From a virus (Duplodnaviria; Heunggongvirae; Uroviricota; Caudoviricetes): a stretch of 36,325 nt of DNA. Position numbers and translations under genes: made by a program. Positions 7,625-36,325 of this stretch are shown here, piece by piece. The stretch spans positions 1 through 36,325 of the IMG/VR virus record IMGVR_UViG_2711768053_000014. One strand, given 5' to 3'. The stretch's first letter is position 1, and each line of letters starts with the position of its first letter. The notes beneath the pieces were generated by a model that was not told the DNA's origin, made no database searches, and was given only the letters and a program-made list of their open reading frames with translations.

Positions 7625-8066
7625 TAATGGTGGCCTCCCATCGGCGGGTGATTTCAATTGTGAGCGTGGTTTTGTCCGGGCGGGTTAACACCACCTGAAA
7701 GGCAATACGGTCAGGGACGATGATGCTGGCCGTGACGGTGGCGTTACGGGCGTAACCGGCCCGCAGCAGCGGTTGCATGGACAGCCGCGCGTAATCTTCC
7801 ACACGCAGGCGGACATCTTCCGTCAGCTTTTCACGCTCAAGCAGCCACAGGCGGGAACCCCACGAAAAATCGCTGTACGTGTCGCCCGGCCAGCCGCGCG
7901 GGTCGCCAGAGCCGTCAGGAATGACATCATCGTCATCAGCACGGGCATCGGTGAAAAGGCAGATAAGAACCTGAGTGACCAGCCCCTCATCCAGTGAGAG
8001 GCCGTTATGGGTGACGGTGATGTCACCCCGTGAGAGCATGTTATTCCAGCGGATTCCTGTCGTCAT
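7614..8066 (-). CDS. Baseplate protein (Mu gp46-like)
   Basis: 150-aa ORF with overlapping stop/start coupling to its neighbours inside the baseplate cluster. Confidence 0.65.
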   Translation of the reverse strand: MTTGIRWNNMLSRGDITVTHNGLSLDEGLVTQVLICLFTDARADDDDVIPDGSGDPRGWPGDTYSDFSWGSRLWLLEREKLTEDVRLRVEDYARLSMQPLLRAGYARNATVTASIIVPDRIAFQVVLTRPDKTTLTIEITRRWEATINAV

Positions 8067-8599
8067 ACGGGCGGTGATGTATTCTCATTGTCGCCGTCCT
8101 TATGAATGTGTTCGATGAATGATTTACCGTTGATTCTGACATCTTCAGTAAATTCACAGGGACCGACGAATTTCATTTGTTTACCGATAATATTCAGCAA
8201 TTCGTCGGCGGTGAGATTTACCGTTTTCCCTGAAAAGTTTAATTGTTCTCCTGTGATTTCAATAATTCCGCCTTTCCTTAACGTGATATGTGATTTGCCG
8301 TCCTGGTGATACAGCCGGACGTCGCCGGTGGACAAGCCTTTAGGGCGACATCGCTTATCCTCCACCGCGATGGCAACCAGCCCGTCACGCCGTCCGCCCA
8401 CGGCCAGCACGATGGCTTCTGAACCTTCCGGCGGAACGGAAGTAAACCCGTAATTCTGGAAGCGCTCCACATCGTCATCAGTGGCATCTGCCAGCGTCTG
8501 GATTTGCAGGTTCTGTCGCTCCAGACTGTCAGACACCATGCGGACAATGGCACGGTCAACCATCAGCCGCAGACGGCGGGCAATGGCGTTTAATCCCAT
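8063..8599 (-). CDS. Baseplate assembly/spike protein V-like (Mu gp45-like)
   Basis: 178-aa ORF, position and size fit a gpV-type baseplate spike. Confidence 0.65.
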   Translation of the reverse strand: MGLNAIARRLRLMVDRAIVRMVSDSLERQNLQIQTLADATDDDVERFQNYGFTSVPPEGSEAIVLAVGGRRDGLVAIAVEDKRCRPKGLSTGDVRLYHQDGKSHITLRKGGIIEITGEQLNFSGKTVNLTADELLNIIGKQMKFVGPCEFTEDVRINGKSFIEHIHKDGDNENTSPPV

Positions 8600-9660
8600 G
8601 TGGCCACCGCCTTTGTTTTCTTCGTCTTCGCTTTCATTTCCGGCATATCCAGTGATTCAGGTGGAACCAGCGCCAGAACCGTCATCCGCCCCTGTGCGCC
8701 ATCCGTCCAGGTCACCCCGGATATCAGCCAGGTGGTTTTCAGGTTCTGAATACTGTCATCAATATCAACAAGGCGGTTGGTCTGCCACAGCGGGCCGCTG
8801 TCGCCCTGTTCGCGCCAGCCTGCCACCGTGATTTCCGTCGTGCGGGCCTCTCCCAGCATCCGGGCCTTGTACCATTCCCCGCGAATGCTGGCCCCGCCCA
8901 CGGTCAGGCTGTCTTCATTAACCAGAATGCGCGGGCGGTAACGGTTAATTTCCGGGTCTTCGACGATGTACTGGCGACCGCCCACCATCGAGGCAGGCTG
9001 GCTGTCCCACAGTTTGCCACCGGCACTGGTGGTGCCTTTGATGATGTACTGGCTGTTACGCTCCCGCCAGCTGAAGCGCCCACGGGCAGCGAGGATATTT
9101 TTCCCCAGCACCAGTGACACACCCGCGCGAACGGAAGAGGCGCGGGTGATAATCAGGTTACCCGCCCCGTCAGACGTCAGCAGAACGCCGCGCTGTTTTG
9201 CCAGCCGGTCGAGCAGTTCAAACCCCGTTTCACCCTGTTCCAGAACGACGGACGCAAACGCCTCCCCGGTCGGGGTTTCCGTGATGACGGTTATCCCGAA
9301 CGGGCGGCAGACATCAGCCGCCACCTGTTCAAGCCGCACGCCTTTCCATTTCCCGGACGAATGCACCACAGAGCAGTCCACCAGGTCACCGGTTTTGTCG
9401 CGCCCCATGACACGAATCTCCACGTTATCTGCGTCATAGCTGGGAATAAAATCATCGATATACCCCGTCAGCACGGTATCCGCGCCCAGCCTGACTGTGC
9501 AGGGTTGCCCCTCACGAATCACGCGCGGTGCCGCCGCTGACCAGCGGGTTGTCACACTGAGTTCAAATTCACCGGCAATCGCCTTCAGGGAACGACTGAC
9601 GGACATTTCCGTCCAGCCTTCCCACAATTTGCCGTCAACGGTAAGAATCACGGATCCCAT
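8590..9660 (-). CDS. Tail/baseplate hub protein P (Mu gp44-like)
   Basis: 356-aa ORF immediately downstream of the N-like gene (ATGA-type overlap); Mu gene P-like by synteny and size. Confidence 0.7.
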   Translation of the reverse strand: MGSVILTVDGKLWEGWTEMSVSRSLKAIAGEFELSVTTRWSAAAPRVIREGQPCTVRLGADTVLTGYIDDFIPSYDADNVEIRVMGRDKTGDLVDCSVVHSSGKWKGVRLEQVAADVCRPFGITVITETPTGEAFASVVLEQGETGFELLDRLAKQRGVLLTSDGAGNLIITRASSVRAGVSLVLGKNILAARGRFSWRERNSQYIIKGTTSAGGKLWDSQPASMVGGRQYIVEDPEINRYRPRILVNEDSLTVGGASIRGEWYKARMLGEARTTEITVAGWREQGDSGPLWQTNRLVDIDDSIQNLKTTWLISGVTWTDGAQGRMTVLALVPPESLDMPEMKAKTKKTKAVATWD

Positions 9661-18199: not shown

Positions 18200-19156
18200 T
18201 TACTCCTGTTTCGGTTTAGCGGCGAGGAACTCTTCCCCGGTAATACCCATGCTGCGACACATCGCCAGTTCGGCATCGGTCAGTGTCTGCGCGGGTTTAT
18301 CCTTGCCCTGGCTGGGCTTGTCGTTGTTCACCAGCGGCTGTGCACCTTTTGTGTACTCCGCAAACTGTTTGCGACCTTCTTCCGTGCGGCAGGTGGCAAG
18401 GAACATGTCACGGTTTGCCGGGGCCACTTTTCCGGCTTCGATGGCCGCATCCACAAGCGCTTCTGCTTCCTTCTCTTCCAGTTGCTGAAGGCGTTGTTCT
18501 GCGATTTGGGCACGGTTCAGTGCCAGATTGTGGGTTTCCACCGGCACAAACTTCGTCAGGTCAGGTGTCTGTGCGCGGTTCATCGCCACCTGCTCGCTCT
18601 CCTGAAGTTGTTTAATGGCCGCCACGGTATCGTCCACCGTGGCAGATTCAGCCAGCCCAAGCAGGCCGGTGATTTGCACAGGTACTGTCATCGGGTTTTT
18701 CTCCGTATTCAGTGCAGGAAAATCCAGGTTAGGTTTGTTGGTCAGCCCGACGCTGGACAGGCGCGTCACCACACCCTCCGCGTCATGGAAAAACGCCGGG
18801 CTGTAATAGCGGTAGCGGCGCTCACTCAGCACCCACCGGGCGGACGCGTTCCAGACAACACGGCCTTCAATGGTGCCGCCATCCGTCACCCGCAGTTCTT
18901 CCACCCAGCCATACGCCGGAGCATCTTCACCACGCGGGCCTTTAATTTCGGTGGCATGTTCAATGTCCACCGGAATTTTGATGTCGGACGAGCGGGCAAC
19001 CACCTCATGCGGATTGCGGTTAATCCACGTCCGGCCATCACGCCCGGTGAACTCACCCGCAGGAACTAGTTCAAGCCATTCCGGCAGTTGAGCGGGTGTC
19101 AGCTCAGTGATGGGTTCTGGCAGGGAAAAACACAGCGCCAGCAGTTCCGGTTGCAT
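18200..19156 (-). CDS. I: Head maturation protease/scaffold protein I
   Basis: 318-aa ORF with a coiled-coil Ala/Glu/Gln-rich C-terminal half (scaffold-like), directly upstream of the major head gene, as Mu I/Z. Confidence 0.75.
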   Translation of the reverse strand: MQPELLALCFSLPEPITELTPAQLPEWLELVPAGEFTGRDGRTWINRNPHEVVARSSDIKIPVDIEHATEIKGPRGEDAPAYGWVEELRVTDGGTIEGRVVWNASARWVLSERRYRYYSPAFFHDAEGVVTRLSSVGLTNKPNLDFPALNTEKNPMTVPVQITGLLGLAESATVDDTVAAIKQLQESEQVAMNRAQTPDLTKFVPVETHNLALNRAQIAEQRLQQLEEKEAEALVDAAIEAGKVAPANRDMFLATCRTEEGRKQFAEYTKGAQPLVNNDKPSQGKDKPAQTLTDAELAMCRSMGITGEEFLAAKPKQE

Positions 19157-19202
19157 GTCAGTCTCCGTCGTTTGGGGTTACCGACGGTCAGTATGCGGAA
19201 GG

Positions 19203-19232
19203 CAGAAAAAAAGCCGGATTTACCGGCTTCAC
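19203..19232 (-). terminator. Rho-independent terminator-like hairpin (minus strand) between F and I
   Basis: Plus strand AAAAAAAGCCGGATTTACCGGCTTCA; on the minus-strand transcript this is a GC stem (AAGCCGG/CCGGCUU) with loop UAAAU followed by U7. Coordinates ±2. Confidence 0.6.
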
Positions 19233-19369
19233 TGAAAACGGGAAGAATACCCCTTCAAAACCCCTTCAAAAACGCCACAGCGCCTTCAAAAAAGTCAGAA
19301 TGCACATTCACGCCATCAGAATAAAAAACGCGTTTCTGATGCGTTTCAGGGGGATTTGCGGCGGGAGGG

Positions 19370-24541: not shown

Positions 24542-24846
24542 TATTTTTTTTCCTTTAACTCGTTCTCTAATAACAAATCGCTGATGCGGGATACCTGGCG
24601 GATGGATGGCCCCAGTTCTTTGATTTCTCCCCGCAGGTTGCTGATATCCAGTTGCAGGCGGTGGAACTCATCACGGTCGGGTAAATGGTGTACCTGGCTT
24701 TCCATCACCGACACGCGGGAACGGAGTGAATCAAACTCTTCACGTTTGACGTAGGTTTTCGCCAGAATCAGCTGAAGCAGGTTTATTCCTGTCATCAGCA
24801 ATGCCCACAGAATGGGCCAGTTGGCTCTGATCATTTCCCAGGACAC
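24541..24846 (-). CDS. Membrane-anchored coiled-coil protein, possible i-spanin (Rz-like)
   Basis: N-terminal hydrophobic segment (WPILWALLMTGINLLQLIL) followed by a charged coiled-coil region; lies in the lysis region. Confidence 0.4.
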   Translation of the reverse strand: MSWEMIRANWPILWALLMTGINLLQLILAKTYVKREEFDSLRSRVSVMESQVHHLPDRDEFHRLQLDISNLRGEIKELGPSIRQVSRISDLLLENELKEKK

Positions 24847-25058
24847 GTTTTCCTCCTGCGTTCCCGCATCTGCTGACAGTCAATACAGGTCACCACATCC
24901 GGCAGCGCCGCAAGGCGCTGTGCCGGAATAACGTTCCCGCAGTCATTGCAGAAGCCCCAGCTGTGGGGCGTTTCTTTTGTCCGTGTCTGCCAGGCTTTAA
25001 CGACGCTCTGACGCTCGTTCAGAACCACTTCACTGATGCGATCGATTTCGTCGGTCAT
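24831..25058 (-). CDS. TraR/DksA-family C4 zinc-finger protein
   Basis: 75-aa ORF with CNDCG...(17 aa)...CIDC, the typical spacing of phage TraR-like proteins. Confidence 0.65.
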   Translation of the reverse strand: MTDEIDRISEVVLNERQSVVKAWQTRTKETPHSWGFCNDCGNVIPAQRLAALPDVVTCIDCQQMRERRRKTCPGK

Positions 25059-25813
25059 TTCGGCCCCGCAGACATTTTGTGACGGCTTGATTTGCTGTAA
25101 CGGGCAAAGCCGTCAAGGGTTCTTACACCGAGATAGCCCAGCGCCGGGGTAAGCAACATCAGCGTGATATCCCAGTCCGGTGATGGCATATGCAGCGTGA
25201 TACTTCTGGCACCGGCAATGGCTCCGGCAATCTGGCCGCAGGAGAGCAACAGCACATAGGCCAGACTGCTGTAACAGGAAAGGCGGGCCAGCAGCGGGCG
25301 TGTCTGGCGCACATAGCTGTCCGTGGCGTTGTCACCATTGCGGATGGTTTCCTGCTGTTCGTGGTGTGCGGCCTGCTGGTCAGCCAGCACCAGCTTCTGC
25401 CGTTCCACCTCCAGCTGTTGCAGCTGAACTTTCAGGGTTTCCAGTTGCACCAGTTGCTCCGGTGACAGCATCACCAGTTTTTGTTCCAGAATGCGTTGCT
25501 GTTCAGCAACGGGAAGGCTTTCCCGGACGCTTTCCACCATACCGGCCACCGAGTCAGCGGCGGCAGATGTACTGCCACCAAACCAGCGCCCGACGGAACG
25601 AATCAGCCCCGGCCCGGCTTTCAGCAGAACAGAGGCGATGCCTGAAAGGGTTAACGGATCCACGGGAAACCTCCATACAGATAACGCTGAAGACAGAGCA
25701 GACCGCCGCAACTGCCACCACACAGCCAGAACACCGGATGCACCGGTGACATCATCATCAGCGTGCTGAAGACGCAGCAGAAATACCCCAGCGCCCAGAC
25801 CACCCATGACCAC
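25055..25813 (-). CDS. Membrane protein, possible holin/lysis-associated (start uncertain)
   Basis: ORF track 25055..25813; the N-terminal part overlaps the upstream membrane ORF, so the real start is probably internal (~25663 alt start or Met at ~25540); coiled-coil middle and two C-terminal hydrophobic segments. Confidence 0.4.
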   Translation of the reverse strand: MVMGGLGAGVFLLRLQHADDDVTGASGVLAVWWQLRRSALSSALSVWRFPVDPLTLSGIASVLLKAGPGLIRSVGRWFGGSTSAAADSVAGMVESVRESLPVAEQQRILEQKLVMLSPEQLVQLETLKVQLQQLEVERQKLVLADQQAAHHEQQETIRNGDNATDSYVRQTRPLLARLSCYSSLAYVLLLSCGQIAGAIAGARSITLHMPSPDWDITLMLLTPALGYLGVRTLDGFARYSKSSRHKMSAGPK

Positions 25814-26076
25814 ACGATGATGTGGCGACCAAAAGCCCGGTAACGGACCTCAGGCAGCAGGCGAAATGGCACATTCCCGAGGCTTGCGCTGTATGAAAAC
25901 AACACCACCCCGGCAAAGGACAACAACATCAATACGAACGATCGCCAGCCACATAACATGCTGATGATGAATATGCAGAGTGTCAGTCCGGCCAGCGGCC
26001 ATGGCGTTCTCATCAGTCGGGAACAAATCAGCCAGTCACACAGTTTTAAAATTTTGTTCATTACCTTTTTCCACAT
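25651..26076 (-). CDS. Multi-pass membrane protein, possible holin
   Basis: ORF track 25651..26247; from the internal Mets (26076/26061) it encodes ~135-140 aa with about four hydrophobic helices; downstream of the endolysin. Confidence 0.45.
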   Translation of the reverse strand: MWKKVMNKILKLCDWLICSRLMRTPWPLAGLTLCIFIISMLCGWRSFVLMLLSFAGVVLFSYSASLGNVPFRLLPEVRYRAFGRHIIVWSWVVWALGYFCCVFSTLMMMSPVHPVFWLCGGSCGGLLCLQRYLYGGFPWIR

Positions 26077-26287
26077 TGAATTTTTCCCTGTACTTCTGGC
26101 ACTGCCAGAAAATGTCCCGTGTATCCACGGAGTTCCAGCCACGCATGTAGTAGCTGGCGTGTGTGCCGTCATGGCCGGTATAGTCCAGCGGTTTCGGGGG
26201 CGGGCCTCCGGCCATGCGGTGCAGAACCTCCTGACGCAGGCGGTCACGCCGCCCGGCTTTCAGTGAGGCATCCCAGCCTTTGCCCAT
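26036..26287 (-). CDS. Small hypothetical protein downstream of endolysin
   Basis: 83-aa ORF starting 2 nt after the endolysin stop; no recognisable motif. Confidence 0.3.
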   Translation of the reverse strand: MGKGWDASLKAGRRDRLRQEVLHRMAGGPPPKPLDYTGHDGTHASYYMRGWNSVDTRDIFWQCQKYREKFNVEKGNEQNFKTV

Positions 26288-26288
26288 A

Positions 26289-26885
26289 TCACCCCCGCGT
26301 GGCGGACATGATGCCCAGAGGGGTATCGATGATTTCCAGACAGGCGTCGGTCAGTTTTTCCATGCGGTTAAACCAGCCGTTCAGGTATTTACCCTGGGCG
26401 GGTTTTGACTTGATGATGTCGGCATAAAAGCGGGAACGACGGACAATGCAGCGGGCCAGCAACCAGTCCGGGGTGGACAGACTCACGGCCTTACGGGTAC
26501 GCGGGCCGATGATGCCGTCAGCATCCACATCAGCGGCTTCCTGCAAAATTCTGATGGCTTTTTTAACGCCATGCTGAACCGCTGCATCGAAAACAAACAT
26601 CGCCACGCCATCAGGCCACTGGTCACATCCGGCAGGCAGCCAGTAATCGCGCCAGTAAATCTGCGCGACCTGTTCGCGGGTTAAATCTTTGATGCGGGTA
26701 TCCGGTTTGCCGTCACCGTTGACATCGGTTTTGCCGTCAATCACACCGTCGCGGCGGTCAGAAATGCCGTATTTGGTTTCGCCGCCACGGTCAGTGGGGT
26801 CATTGACATAGACGCCTTCGATATCAGGACGCAGAATGAAATTCAGCGCATGTTCAAAGGCCGGGGAGAATTTTTGATTTTCCAT
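26289..26885 (-). CDS. Endolysin, GH108-type muramidase with PG-binding domain
   Basis: N-terminal motif ...PDIEGVYVNDPTDRGGETKYGIS... resembles the GH108 EGGY...PGGxT.YGI signature and the C-terminal ...DADGIIGPRTRKAV... resembles a peptidoglycan-binding domain (from memory); no signal peptide or SAR segment. Confidence 0.75.
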   Translation of the reverse strand: MENQKFSPAFEHALNFILRPDIEGVYVNDPTDRGGETKYGISDRRDGVIDGKTDVNGDGKPDTRIKDLTREQVAQIYWRDYWLPAGCDQWPDGVAMFVFDAAVQHGVKKAIRILQEAADVDADGIIGPRTRKAVSLSTPDWLLARCIVRRSRFYADIIKSKPAQGKYLNGWFNRMEKLTDACLEIIDTPLGIMSATRG

Positions 26886-26940
26886 AAAAGCACCTGTGAA
26901 GCAGATTTAAACGTGGTCTGCTTCATGGTGCCGGAGGCAT

Positions 26941-26968
26941 AAAAAAAGCCGGATTTACCGGCTTCATT
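26941..26968 (-). terminator. Rho-independent terminator-like hairpin (minus strand) after the mor operon
   Basis: Plus strand AAAAAAAGCCGGATTTACCGGCTTCA, identical to the element at ~19205..19230; on the minus strand a stem-loop followed by U7, about 20 nt past the stop of the 26987..27484 ORF. Confidence 0.6.
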
Positions 26969-26986
26969 GAATATCAGGTTATTGAC

Positions 26987-27484
26987 TCAGTTAACTTTAC
27001 GGGCAGAACATGTAGTCTTCATTACTGAACGTTCAATTTTTATCTTCCAGCCATTTACTGTTTTTTCGACAGGATCATCTTCAGCTTGCTTTAAATTTTC
27101 AACTTGCATGAAATTCAGTGGGGCTGGGGTATCATCGTCCCATGATGTCGGACGAACATAATCAGGGACAACAAAAGGCTCAAAAACAGTTTCACATAAA
27201 GCAGACGTCATTTGAGCAAACTCGTCGCTATCGGGGCGAACCGGTCCTGTAACATACTGCATTTTTATGTTGATTTCGTTATCTCGCACAGACGCCTTTA
27301 AATCCTGATATACACCTAAGTTAAATCCTTTAAACTCAGCAATGGCAGCGTCACCTTTACCGTACCAGTCGGTATAGTCAACGGATGTTTTTTTCTGAAA
27401 AACATCTTTGACTTTTTGCTGGAATGTATCCGCCGCTTGTACAGTAGTAACAGTTAGTAGAAGAATAAGGGGAAGATATTTCAT
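26987..27484 (-). CDS. Secreted (signal-peptide) protein of unknown function in the position of Mu late activator C
   Basis: 165-aa ORF; N-terminus MKYLPLILLLTVTTVQA|AD is a classical Sec signal peptide with an AxA site; start overlaps the mor stop (translational coupling); followed by a terminator hairpin; no similarity to the Mor/C family. Confidence 0.6.
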   Translation of the reverse strand: MKYLPLILLLTVTTVQAADTFQQKVKDVFQKKTSVDYTDWYGKGDAAIAEFKGFNLGVYQDLKASVRDNEINIKMQYVTGPVRPDSDEFAQMTSALCETVFEPFVVPDYVRPTSWDDDTPAPLNFMQVENLKQAEDDPVEKTVNGWKIKIERSVMKTTCSARKVN

Positions 27485-27882
27485 TGTTCGTCCTTAAATA
27501 GTTGCATTTGATATTTTCCACGCTCCAGTCGGCGCATTCTTTTGATGGCCTGATATACCGTTTTGTATGTCACTTTGTAACGCTGCACCAGCTCCGCTAC
27601 GTTTTTCCCATCAAAATCACGCCAGATGCGCATGTCTCTGATAAGATTTTCCAGTATTTTCCCTTTCGGAACATATACCTGAATCCCACCGATATGATTG
27701 CAAATCGCCACTACCAGCTCAAGAGAGTGGGCAGGGTTAACTCCAAGCCTTATCAGCTCCTGTCGCAACAGAGCATTCAGCTCAGCCAGTAAAGATGGAA
27801 ATCCCGATTTTTCCTGAATATCATCAAAATATTCAAGGATACTGTCGTCCTGATAATCACCAAATAAATCCTGCTCTTTCAT
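27481..27882 (-). CDS. mor: Mor/C-family transcriptional activator (middle operon regulator-like)
   Basis: 133-aa ORF; ...DLFGDYQDD...FPSLLAELNALLRQELIRLGVNPAHSLELVVAICNHIGGIQVYVP...VTYKTVYQAIKRMRR resembles Mu Mor as I recall it; located right after gemA as in Mu. Confidence 0.8.
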   Translation of the reverse strand: MKEQDLFGDYQDDSILEYFDDIQEKSGFPSLLAELNALLRQELIRLGVNPAHSLELVVAICNHIGGIQVYVPKGKILENLIRDMRIWRDFDGKNVAELVQRYKVTYKTVYQAIKRMRRLERGKYQMQLFKDEQ

Positions 27883-28430
27883 AGAACTATTCTCCCACTG
27901 TTTCTGGCGCGGGCATACGCACTGGTCAGTGCATCATATCCGCGCAGGTCCCGCCCGGTTTCGCTCACAGGTAAAGGTACGCCATGTCGGGCAAAGGCTT
28001 CCCGGATGCAGCGCATATGCCACTGTTTGAGCGTTTCGAGCACAACCTGCAACGATTCCCCGTGACACCAGGCCAGCGTGGAAACACCCTGACCGCCATT
28101 ACGTCTGGCTGTCAGGCGCTCAACGTATTTGTCCAGCGCGGCGTCGCTGATATCGGAGACGAAACCATCAAGGAACATCTGCTGCCAGATTTTGTAAATC
28201 TTCTCGCGTGGTGTGACATGCCCCTTAAAGCGACGGCGGGGATGTTTTTTCTGCTTTTTAAAACCGCGCTCTTTCATGGCATCGAGCACTTGTTCCAGTT
28301 GTGCAACGGACAGCTCGCGGCAACTGGTTTTGCCCGTGCACTGCACCAGAAAAGCACGGTAAGTGTCATCGTCGAGTTGCAACTCCCGACGGGCAACATG
28401 AATTAATTTAATCAGGGATGTGCGGCTCAT
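27879..28430 (-). CDS. gemA: GemA-like early regulatory protein (Mu gp16 family)
   Basis: 183-aa ORF immediately upstream of mor, the position and size of Mu GemA. Confidence 0.65.
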   Translation of the reverse strand: MSRTSLIKLIHVARRELQLDDDTYRAFLVQCTGKTSCRELSVAQLEQVLDAMKERGFKKQKKHPRRRFKGHVTPREKIYKIWQQMFLDGFVSDISDAALDKYVERLTARRNGGQGVSTLAWCHGESLQVVLETLKQWHMRCIREAFARHGVPLPVSETGRDLRGYDALTSAYARARNSGRIVL

Positions 28431-30433: not shown

Positions 30434-30724
30434 TTAATATTCGCTGTATACAATGCTGGATACAGCACGATTGCTTAATTCCATCTTTTGGGCTATCACA
30501 TGAATATCCAGCCCTTCTTTATAAAGTTCACGACACAAATATTTGTCGTGCTCACTGATTCGATATGCACACAACGATATTCCGTGCCTTCTGGCATGTG
30601 CCCGTAGGGCGGTTGTGGCAACGTTCAGTTTTTTCGCCATTTCCTCGACGGTCATTTTCCCGACACTGGCTTCGATAAATTCCCGGTCTTCGCGTGACCA
30701 TCTTTTGCGAGGGATTATCATCAT
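30434..30724 (-). CDS. Putative HTH DNA-binding early protein
   Basis: ORF track 30434..30799; internal Met at 30724 has a perfect RBS (GGAAGGAGG); two helix-turn-helix-like segments. Confidence 0.45.
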   Translation of the reverse strand: MMIIPRKRWSREDREFIEASVGKMTVEEMAKKLNVATTALRAHARRHGISLCAYRISEHDKYLCRELYKEGLDIHVIAQKMELSNRAVSSIVYSEY

Positions 30725-30740
30725 GCCTCCTTCCCTGAAA

Positions 30741-31010
30741 TTAATGTTTGGCTGCATCCGGGTTATACCGGAATAACTCGCCTTCGGCTTCCAGCCCAAG
30801 TTCTCTGGTTGACTTCAACAACTCCTGGGTTGCTTTTTCAATAATTTCAGGAGCCATGCTCTTGATAATGCCTGCCATCACGTCATGCGGTCCGGTTTGC
30901 TCCTTAGGAGACTGTTCTTCCAGTTGCACACTCACTCCTACAAAGAAACCTCCTTTTTTCTGAAACTCAACATCTTCCATGCGGTTAAATTCAAAGATTA
31001 CTTTTGCCAT
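30741..31010 (-). CDS. Hypothetical early protein
   Basis: ORF track 30741..31064; likely start at the internal Met at 31010 with a GAGGAA RBS; 89 aa. Confidence 0.4.
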   Translation of the reverse strand: MAKVIFEFNRMEDVEFQKKGGFFVGVSVQLEEQSPKEQTGPHDVMAGIIKSMAPEIIEKATQELLKSTRELGLEAEGELFRYNPDAAKH

Positions 31011-35490: not shown

Positions 35491-35578
35491 GCAGGCATTC
35501 GTTGATGGGATTAAAGAAACGCCTTAAATAAGAAGCAGTGATATACTCCCACCAGACTCCCCGGCAGGAAAAAGACAA

Positions 35579-36325
35579 ATGGAACAAGCGCATACCCAGC
35601 TGATTGCCCAACTGAACGAGCGTATTTTAGCGGCGGATAACACGCCGCTTTATATTAAGTTTGCCGAAACGGTAAAAAATGCCGTGCGCAGCGGGGTGCT
35701 GGAGCATGGCAATATTTTGCCCGGTGAGCGTGATTTAAGTCAGTTAACCGGCGTTTCGCGCATTACGGTGCGCAAGGCGATGCAGGCGCTGGAAGAAGAG
35801 GGTGTGGTGACGCGTTCGCGCGGTTACGGCACGCAGATCAACAACATCTTCGAATACTCGTTGAAAGAAGCGCGAGGTTTTTCTCAGCAGGTGGTATTGC
35901 GCGGGAAAAAGCCCGATACGCTATGGGTTAACAAGCGTGTCGTGAAATGTCCCGAAGAAGTCGCGCAGCAGCTGGCGGTCGAAGCAGGAAGTGATGTCTT
36001 TTTGCTTAAGCGTATTCGCTATGTCGATGAAGAAGCGGTATCGATTGAGGAATCGTGGGTTCCGGCGCATTTAATTCATGATGTTGATGCCATCGGGATT
36101 TCACTTTATGACTATTTCCGCAGCCAGCACATTTACCCACAACGTACGCGTTCCCGCGTTAGCGCCCGGATGCCGGATGCCGAGTTTCAGTCACATATTC
36201 AGTTAGATAGCAAAATACCGGTGCTGGTGATCAAGCAAGTGGCGCTTGACCAACAGCAACGGCCTATTGAGTACAGCATTAGCCACTGTCGCAGCGATCT
36301 ATACGTTTTTGTGTGCGAGGAGTAG
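35579..36325 (+). CDS. yegW: GntR/HutC-family transcriptional regulator (host gene), yegW-like
   Basis: 248-aa ORF with an N-terminal GntR-type HTH (...ERDLSQLTGVSRITVRKAMQALEEEGVV...) and a C-terminal effector-binding domain; outside the prophage end; symbol from memory of E. coli YegW (248 aa), not verified. Confidence 0.6.
   Translation: MEQAHTQLIAQLNERILAADNTPLYIKFAETVKNAVRSGVLEHGNILPGERDLSQLTGVSRITVRKAMQALEEEGVVTRSRGYGTQINNIFEYSLKEARGFSQQVVLRGKKPDTLWVNKRVVKCPEEVAQQLAVEAGSDVFLLKRIRYVDEEAVSIEESWVPAHLIHDVDAIGISLYDYFRSQHIYPQRTRSRVSARMPDAEFQSHIQLDSKIPVLVIKQVALDQQQRPIEYSISHCRSDLYVFVCEE

Follow-up and report, generated by a model that had tools for sequence, protein, structure and literature searches.

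Late gene control in a Mu-like E. coli prophage is examined here in a window of 36,325 nucleotides (IMG/VR virus record IMGVR_UViG_2711768053_000014, the whole stretch of DNA that was analysed), whose minus strand (-) is a nearly complete prophage running from the repressor/ner/transposase end to com and most of mom (1-840). The prophage encodes a single activator of the Mor/C family, Mor, and by sequence comparison an element homologous to the Mor operator of Mu stands in front of both the endolysin gene and the head-protease gene. The explanation that accounts best for this arrangement, and that is considered probable, is a Mor-only two-step lytic cascade in which Pm-type promoters serve the lysis operon and the head operon, and the early operon ends in an optional cassette for an exported protein. 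C would most likely be unneeded in this phage, and would never have been displaced by the 165-aa gene that follows mor.

Sequence and comparison with other phages suggest Mor binding, promoter activity, export and a role for the 165-aa protein, and the cascade can be outlined on this footing. The last genes of the early operon are gemA, mor and the coupled 165-aa gene, and transcription of the operon would stop at a hairpin followed by a T-tract (T7). The left arm and loop of this hairpin would constitute a Mu-Pm-type operator, to which Mor made from the early transcript would bind, recruiting RNA polymerase to a promoter devoid of a -35 box. This promoter would drive the endolysin, a homologue of Mu gp18, the lysis genes and the packaging genes, while an operator/promoter of the same type upstream of the protease would drive the head genes and, because the genes are tightly packed, probably the tail genes too. 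Translation of the 165-aa protein would be coupled to that of Mor at an early stage of lytic growth, and the product would pass through Sec and fold in the periplasm. The gene layout given in the original prediction, which had been made from the sequence alone, was recovered in full on the minus strand: gemA, mor, a coupled 165-aa ORF with a Sec-type N-terminus, a hairpin and the endolysin.

The Mor operator homologue upstream of the endolysin

A terminator scan flagged the hairpin GAAGCCGG-TAAAT-CCGGCTTT with T7 at 26941-26965 (-), and a 61-nt stretch that contains it has a minimum free energy of -16.1 kcal/mol (z = -2.3). This hairpin is likely the terminator of the early operon, and it overlaps, as t9.2 and Pm do in Mu, a putative Mor operator of the lysis-operon promoter, AATGA-AGCCGG-TAAAT (26953-26968, -), which aligns with positions -51 to -36 of Mu Pm (AGTAA-AGCCGG-TTAAT). 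In Mu, the Mor operator at these positions is a 16-bp dyad centred at -43.5, in which inverted repeats of 5 bp enclose a G/C-rich hexamer (PMC4390567, PMC4287176). Its register was derived here from the reported bases -57G and -54A, which yields AGTAA-AGCCGG-TTAAT, that is, the left arm and loop of the hairpin.

The resemblance covers the flanks of the element as well. The sequence just after mor in Mu is AGTAAAGCCGGTTAATCCGGCTTTTTTTACGTCCTC and that just after the 165-aa ORF in the window is AATGAAGCCGGTAAATCCGGCTTTTTTTATGCCTCC. A -10-like hexamer, CACCAT, was assigned by sequence comparison at 26925-26930 (-), 10 nt after T7, and Mu Pm has TATCCT at the same spacing after its T-tract. As judged from these alignments, the hairpin region of the window is homologous to the Mor operator/terminator of Mu (Pm/t9.2). 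Since the hairpin region itself would be the activator site, the 55 nt from T7 to the endolysin ATG would accommodate the core promoter and the leader, and the earlier view that this interval leaves little room for a promoter is not borne out.

The position of the element also bears on what occupies the place of C. The Mu annotation gives the order gemA, mor, a terminator (9179-9200) within the Pm feature (9163-9233), gp18, gp19, gp20, C, a terminator with P_lys, and the endolysin. The 165-aa ORF had been assigned to the slot of C; it is found upstream of the t9.2/Pm-type element, whereas C in Mu lies downstream of it, within the middle operon, so that the two do not occupy the same slot. The first gene behind the element of the window is a GH108 endolysin (26289-26885, -; Pfam Glyco_hydro_108 1e-23, PG_binding_3 3e-17), directly followed by a homologue of Mu gp18 (26036-26287, -; 69% identity, E 5e-38), on whose Citrobacter orthologue the family PF26867 Phage_Mu_gp18 is recorded. 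In the Mu annotation gp18 is the first gene of the Mor-dependent middle operon, and the presence of its homologue behind the endolysin indicates that the operon behind the box corresponds to the middle and lysis operons of Mu joined together. The ORF that comes after the gp18 homologue (25651-26076, -) has long hydrophobic stretches; the counterpart position in Mu is that of the membrane protein gp19, to which its similarity is marginal (E 0.011).

The second copy upstream of the head-protease gene

The dyad AGCCGG-N5-CCGGCT has two perfect matches in the window, and no more, at 26947-26963 and at 19212-19228. The second occurrence, supported by alignment, forms part of a putative Mor box with hairpin and T7 (AGTGA-AGCCGG-TAAAT-CCGGC-T7, 19206-19233, -), located 50 nt upstream of the head-protease gene in a 213-bp gap where Mu has P_I. 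The first gene behind it is the homologue of Mu gene I (18200-19156, -; Pfam Mu-like_Pro 1.5e-43). A candidate -10-like hexamer, CATACT (19190-19195, -), is found 10 nt after the T7 of this copy. About 45 bp are common to both copies, TTCA-TGAAGCCGGTAAATCCGGCTTTTTTT-TGCCT, and in a scan with a position weight matrix (PWM) built from five sites, the two window copies among them, these copies score 30.5 and 30.0 against a maximum of 31, and no other site on the two strands exceeds 16.5. The dyad is found once only in the Mu genome, at Pm. Both window copies present the layout of a Mu Pm-type promoter, with the 16-bp element, a T-rich spacer and a -10 hexamer at the Pm spacing, in the absence of a -35 box, although the -10 matches are weak. 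A separate terminator-like palindrome is located farther upstream in the same gap, at about 19320-19350.

A comparison can be made with Klebsiella phage Kp4866-3, whose DNA is about 70% identical overall and whose Mor is 68% identical. This phage has AGCCGGTTAATCCGGCT-T7 before its GH108 endolysin and GGGAAAGCGGTTAATCCACTTTCTTCT before its protease gene. In the latter copy the left arm, the loop and the T-rich spacer (GGGAAAGCGGTTAATCC) are kept and the right arm is lost, which makes a hairpin impossible. The conservation of the operator half without the hairpin argues for selection on that half, that is, for protein binding, and not for termination alone.

It is unlikely that the two hairpin copies with T7 are merely intrinsic terminators and that the late promoters are driven instead by a TraR/DksA-type zinc-finger protein (24831-25058), by a helix-turn-helix (HTH) protein (30434-30799) or by read-through. 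Both copies do score as terminators, each after the end of the upstream gene, their -10-like hexamers are weak, and the HTH ORF has a weak match to PHROG 836 (E 0.0015). Against this, the homologous Mu element has been experimentally defined as the Mor operator (PMC4390567, PMC4287176), the protease copy of Kp4866-3 represents an operator half in the absence of a hairpin, some 45 bp are kept beyond the hairpin, including the spacing to the -10 hexamer, and the HTH ORF does not belong to the Mor/C family according to Pfam and to a Mor/C hidden Markov model (HMM).

Several observations nevertheless weigh against a Mor-only cascade. The half-sites of the window differ from those of Mu (A[A/G]TGA and TAAAT vs AGTAA and TTAAT), the hexamers CACCAT and CATACT are weak matches to a -10 box, the register of the Mu operator was derived from base identities and not read from a figure, and the hairpin copies could be kept simply as terminators. 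Furthermore, neither the box search nor the PWM detected a Mor box upstream of com/mom, and the PWM search found no clear box within the tail genes, where it gave one weak candidate at 8231 (-); as far as the sequence indicates, mom activation at least would require some other explanation. The weak tail site, AGGGAAAACGGTAAATC (8190-8231, -), scores 15.5 of 31 with the PWM, has TATTAT at the predicted -12 to -7 positions and falls inside a baseplate gene (8063-8599); a promoter internal to the tail operon, comparable with Mu P_P within gene N, is one reading of it, and a chance match another.

A single Mor/C-family regulator

The product of mor (27481-27882, -) is recognised by Pfam Mor (6.6e-30) and by PHROG 532 'late transcriptional activator' (1.5e-40), and its score against PF08765 is 103.7 bits, with a curated cut-off of 24.9. 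This 133-aa protein displays the layout of the Mor type, being small, acidic in its N-terminal half and basic in the C-terminal half, where the helix-turn-helix resides (HTH-family sub-matches at residues 91-118). It aligns with Mu Mor over 127 residues, with 64% identity (BLASTP 3e-61), and is 30% identical to Mu C (BLASTP 7e-18); in the alignments its C-terminal stretch TYKTVYQAIKRMRR is nearly identical to TFNTVYKAIRRMRR of Mu Mor. By these sequence measures the sole activator is Mor-like, not C-like. As for its termini, the protein starts with MKEQDLF and ends with YQMQLFKDEQ, Mor from the related locus L017 ends with YQPDLF plus a 17-residue tail, and Mu Mor ends with QPSLL. N- and C-terminal beta-clamp-binding motifs, Qx[D/E][L/M]F and QPDLF, have been reported for Mor/MuC proteins (PMC12867686), and the termini of the window and L017 proteins resemble them.

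The search for a second member of the family relied on an HMM built from window Mor, Mu Mor and Mu C, which was run unfiltered on six-frame stop-to-stop segments of at least 20 aa from the window (994 segments), from the right end of a 95-97%-identical E. coli prophage and from Mu as a control. The window mor was the sole match in the window, both Mor and C were recovered in the Mu control, and everything else had E > 1. Pfam Mor likewise matched only one of the 247 window segments of 60-330 aa at E <= 0.1. No second Mor/C homologue was thus found in the window by either scan, and the HMM detected no C at the right end of the related E. coli prophage. The early HTH ORF (30434-30799, -) was considered as a hidden second activator and rejected, as it has no match to Pfam Mor or to the Mor/C HMM; its principal match is PHROG 323 'transcriptional regulator, D5-like' (5.8e-28), and its weak PHROG 836 match corresponds to the 'late transcriptional activator' annotation. 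The assertion that mor is the only Mor/C regulator of the window is thereby upheld and, with it, one of the options entertained for the prophage, a different logic of late control: a single Mor/C regulator is unlike the Mor-to-C-to-late cascade of Mu.

This condition is shared by other phages. In a tblastn survey of 50,697 phage records with window Mor as the query (E <= 1e-3, a sensitivity at which Mu C, with 30% identity, was detected), two Mor/C matches per genome were obtained only in Mu, D108, SfMu, Yersinia Mu-like phages, Mu_3F6 and PhiR68_1. A single match was obtained in Kp4866-3, Vibrio phages (including martha 12B12), Pseudomonas phage Bise, BcepMu, phiE255, Pseudoalteromonas HS6 and E. 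coli PhiKM. The published record agrees: the gene table of KS10 lists a gp16 (GemA) homologue, then a single Mor and then the protease (PMC2628397), and in the B3-like phage Fc02 the early operon ends with mor (PMC9936078). A megablast search with the locus against the phage collection returned no match. The apparent anomaly of a missing C therefore dissolves, since the phages listed outside the Mu group show a single Mor-type activator and the prophage fits that pattern; its single-activator regulation is ordinary, not an unusual arrangement. The Mor-to-C relay of Mu would seem to be an additional tier, confined to the Mu/D108/SfMu group.

It is extremely improbable that a cargo gene replaced C and left the prophage defective in late expression or dependent on a helper. 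Such a replacement would agree with the lack of a C homologue in the prophage and with the state of the com/mom promoter region, which is homologous to Mu Pmom and has the same GATC cluster but no canonical C box: the Mu box TTAT-GCCCCA-ATAA reads TTGT-GATTAA-ATAC upstream of com, and 11 bp are missing before the -10 hexamer, so that by sequence the C box is decayed. In this region com spans 628-840 (-; the likely true start being 813), and mom (-; Pfam Mom 4.6e-74) runs off the left end of the window. However, the 165-aa ORF is upstream of the Pm-type element and C in Mu is downstream of Pm, relatives in which the place of the 165-aa gene is empty also lack C at the locus, the phages listed outside the Mu group have one Mor/C match, the late genes give full-length family matches, and relatives are inserted at many sites.

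The last two points concern the state of the prophage. Full-length family matches were obtained for every Mu-type gene tested. The chromosomal site of relatives changes from strain to strain. In E. coli SA53-3 the 95-97%-identical prophage, whose tail-fibre region contains an IS3, is flanked by ynfC and ynfD, and further relatives are found elsewhere. These differing sites fit transpositional insertion, as is expected of an active transposable phage. The proposal that the prophage is defective for late expression thus appears unlikely, given the full-length family matches, the differing insertion sites and the existence of single-Mor phages elsewhere. At the other end of the window, beyond the repressor end, the flank contains a host GntR/UTRA regulator gene (35528-36322, +).

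The variable slot between mor and the element

The interval between mor and the element was surveyed in 16 IMG/VR loci retrieved by means of the Mor protein, in four loci on E. coli chromosomes, in Kp4866-3 and in a contig of Citrobacter. With the window and Mu set aside, the same dyad with a T-run is present between mor and the GH108 endolysin in 22 of the 22 loci scanned for it, and the Citrobacter contig, which was outside that scan, has the same gene order with a 168-aa homologue. C is absent at the locus in each of the surveyed relatives. The content of the slot varies: it may be a member of the 165/167/168-aa family, an exported protein of 159 aa, a protein of 170 aa whose N-terminus has a hydrophobic segment, or a protein of 110-111 aa with three hydrophobic segments, and the slot may also be empty. 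It is empty in L017 and in E. coli RM13745, with an interval of 85 bp between mor and the endolysin. The 110-111-aa protein is that of Klebsiella-type relatives (L006, 3381-3713; L021-L024), in which its GTG start overlaps the mor stop; it had no family match, and family searches with the slot-variant proteins (Pfam, PHROGs, NCBIfam, PADLOC) gave nothing usable. Among 5426 complete E. coli genomes the gemA-mor region was matched in 95 (true Mu counted in), nine of which have the 165-aa gene; other complete E. coli genomes have the 159-aa form or an empty slot.

The limits of the variable cassette (26973-27464, -) were set by blastn breakpoints against the E. coli prophages L002 and L003, which carry the 159-aa form, and by the slot survey. 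Similarity to these carriers ends within the signal-peptide codons (27464/27465) and resumes at 26972, 15 nt past the stop and just before the hairpin. At the protein level, BLASTP and hhalign align only the first ~41 residues of the 165-aa and 159-aa proteins. A forced alignment leaves a W, a G and two cysteines in common, and the order of the C-terminal secondary-structure elements is similar, although the AlphaFold2 model of the 159-aa protein is poor (pLDDT 57); a very distant homology of the two proteins is suggestive only.

The idea that the 165-aa gene is cargo that displaced C consequently stands in part. The protein looks exported and the gene behaves as cargo, being present or absent among collinear relatives as an accessory gene or moron would be; displacement finds no support, given that relatives with an empty slot are also devoid of C at the locus. 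The gene departs from a moron in the matter of its own promoter and terminator, since no promoter-like site precedes it, it is ATGA-coupled to mor, and its terminator is common to the early operon. A more far-reaching and clearly tentative proposal joins two claims. According to it, the slot would be a diversification hotspot of a fast-evolving, hitherto unrecognised early periplasmic family (the 165-, 159- and 170-aa proteins, with a signal peptide, W-x-GKG and two cysteines) that protects the lytic cell or its progeny through superinfection exclusion or receptor masking, and, in addition, this lineage would show that the three-tier cascade of Mu came about when a Mor paralogue, C, was inserted downstream of an ancestral late promoter that Mor fired directly; that both hold is possible, with the balance against it.

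The 165-aa protein and its predicted export

The gemA homologue (27879-28430, -; Pfam GemA 9.1e-33) has a stop codon that overlaps the mor start (ATGA), and the 165-aa ORF (26987-27484, -), the last cistron of the early operon, is joined to mor in the same manner: its ATG shares bases with the mor stop (caATGAaa), and AAGGA precedes it by six bases. Codons 1-17 (27434-27484, -) encode a predicted Sec signal peptide, MKYLPLILLLTVTTVQA, cut before AD. Judged by eye, it consists of MK, YLPLILLLTVTTV and VQA|AD, that is, a single basic residue and a hydrophobic core of 13 residues, with V-Q-A preceding the predicted cut, and has the features of a Sec substrate of signal peptidase I, without a lipobox cysteine. 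In agreement with this, the AlphaFold2 model (mean pLDDT 85.6, pTM 0.78) is confident at residues 18-165 and poor or disordered at 1-17, the pLDDT being below 55 at residues 1-20. Distant family members keep an N-terminal hydrophobic stretch ending in a small-x-small motif, as well as two cysteines, which may form a disulfide in the periplasm. From these features, the protein would be exported by Sec.

The family is small, with six clusters in 5.8 billion proteins (from E. coli, Citrobacter and metagenomes) and 17 representatives in a profile search of 1.84 billion proteins. Its recurring motifs are DWYxKGD...FAE, a cysteine in a long helix, WDD, NGWxhxIxR and CSAxK. No match was found in Pfam, PHROGs or NCBIfam, and the AlphaFold2 model gave no significant fold match; nor did PADLOC, PHROGs, Pfam, NCBIfam or the fold search connect the protein with known anti-phage defence or exclusion families. 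PADLOC returned one weak match to ZorB1 (E 0.0023, 15.5 bits; residues 7-85, the N-terminal half), which was set aside as probably driven by the hydrophobic signal-peptide region. The protein is an uncharacterised orphan. With low confidence, its role may be placed in envelope-level conflict between phages or between phage and host, for example superinfection exclusion or receptor masking during lytic growth; this part of the proposal is drawn from location, export signals and slot variability, and it counts against it that the fold and family searches gave no supporting match.

The time at which the gene is expressed separates this role from that of a lysogenic-conversion factor with its own promoter, which would modify the envelope or exclude phages in the lysogen. 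Conversion is decidedly unlikely. The slot is accessory and variable among relatives, an export signal is present, and the G+C content of the gene (~0.40-0.43) is below that of the late genes (0.55-0.60), all of which a conversion gene would share; but mor is equally low in G+C (about 0.41), the ATGA coupling to mor places the gene inside the repressed early operon, no sigma-70-like promoter was found on the coding strand upstream of it, and no intergenic gap exists upstream of gemA to match the semi-early promoter of Mu. Given the lack of an own promoter and the coupling to mor, the gene would be expressed at an early lytic stage and not in the lysogen.

Alternatively, the protein could be a periplasmic factor of lysis timing, for instance one that would regulate or inhibit the GH108 endolysin or cell-wall turnover, in keeping with the proximity of its gene to that of the endolysin and with a predicted periplasmic location in which it would precede endolysin synthesis. 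This is very improbable, as the slot is empty or filled with unrelated membrane proteins while the endolysin is unchanged, the two genes belong to different operons, and no fold similarity to known lysozyme inhibitors was found. The slot between mor and the early terminator, with its swappable envelope-targeted genes, constitutes a source of candidate exclusion or envelope-conflict factors.

Comparison with known systems

Morons, together with early exported exclusion proteins such as T5 Llp and T4 Sp/Imm, are the systems closest to the slot gene. The 165-aa gene differs from them in lacking its own promoter, in its coupling to mor, in the absence of a lipobox and in that no sequence or fold similarity to known exclusion proteins was found. 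It resembles them in being small and envelope-targeted, in occupying a presence/absence slot with conserved flanks and a terminator after it, and in having a G+C content below that of the late genes.

With regard to the element, the closest system is Pm/t9.2 of Mu, in which AGCCGG-N5-CCGGCT with T7 also comes directly after the early operon; the T-tract is the same, and so is its distance to a -10-like hexamer, the activators are 64% identical, and a gp18 homologue lies downstream in the window. The differences reside in the number and use of the element, which is present twice in the window, heading the lysis/packaging and head operons, and in Mu heads a short middle operon that encodes C. 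The half-sites are also off by one to two bases, and one extra gene stands between mor and the element. Compared with the C promoters of Mu (P_lys, P_I, P_P and P_mom), the putative Mor boxes of the window are found at the positions of P_lys and P_I; in contrast to the Mu C system, the window has no C protein, and neither position has a TTAT-N5-6-ATAA C box.

The single-Mor phages (BcepMu, phiE255, KS10, B3/Fc02, martha 12B12, PhiKM and Kp4866-3) share with the window one Mor/C gene at the end of the early operon, after gemA and followed by the late genes. Apart from Kp4866-3, they have a distant Mor, with 29-39% identity to that of the window. The window lineage, on the contrary, combines this arrangement with a Mor and an operator very close to those of Mu, so that one-tier and two-tier arrangements occur in close relatives, and it offers a simple system for how the C tier of Mu evolved and how the specificities of Mor and C diverged.

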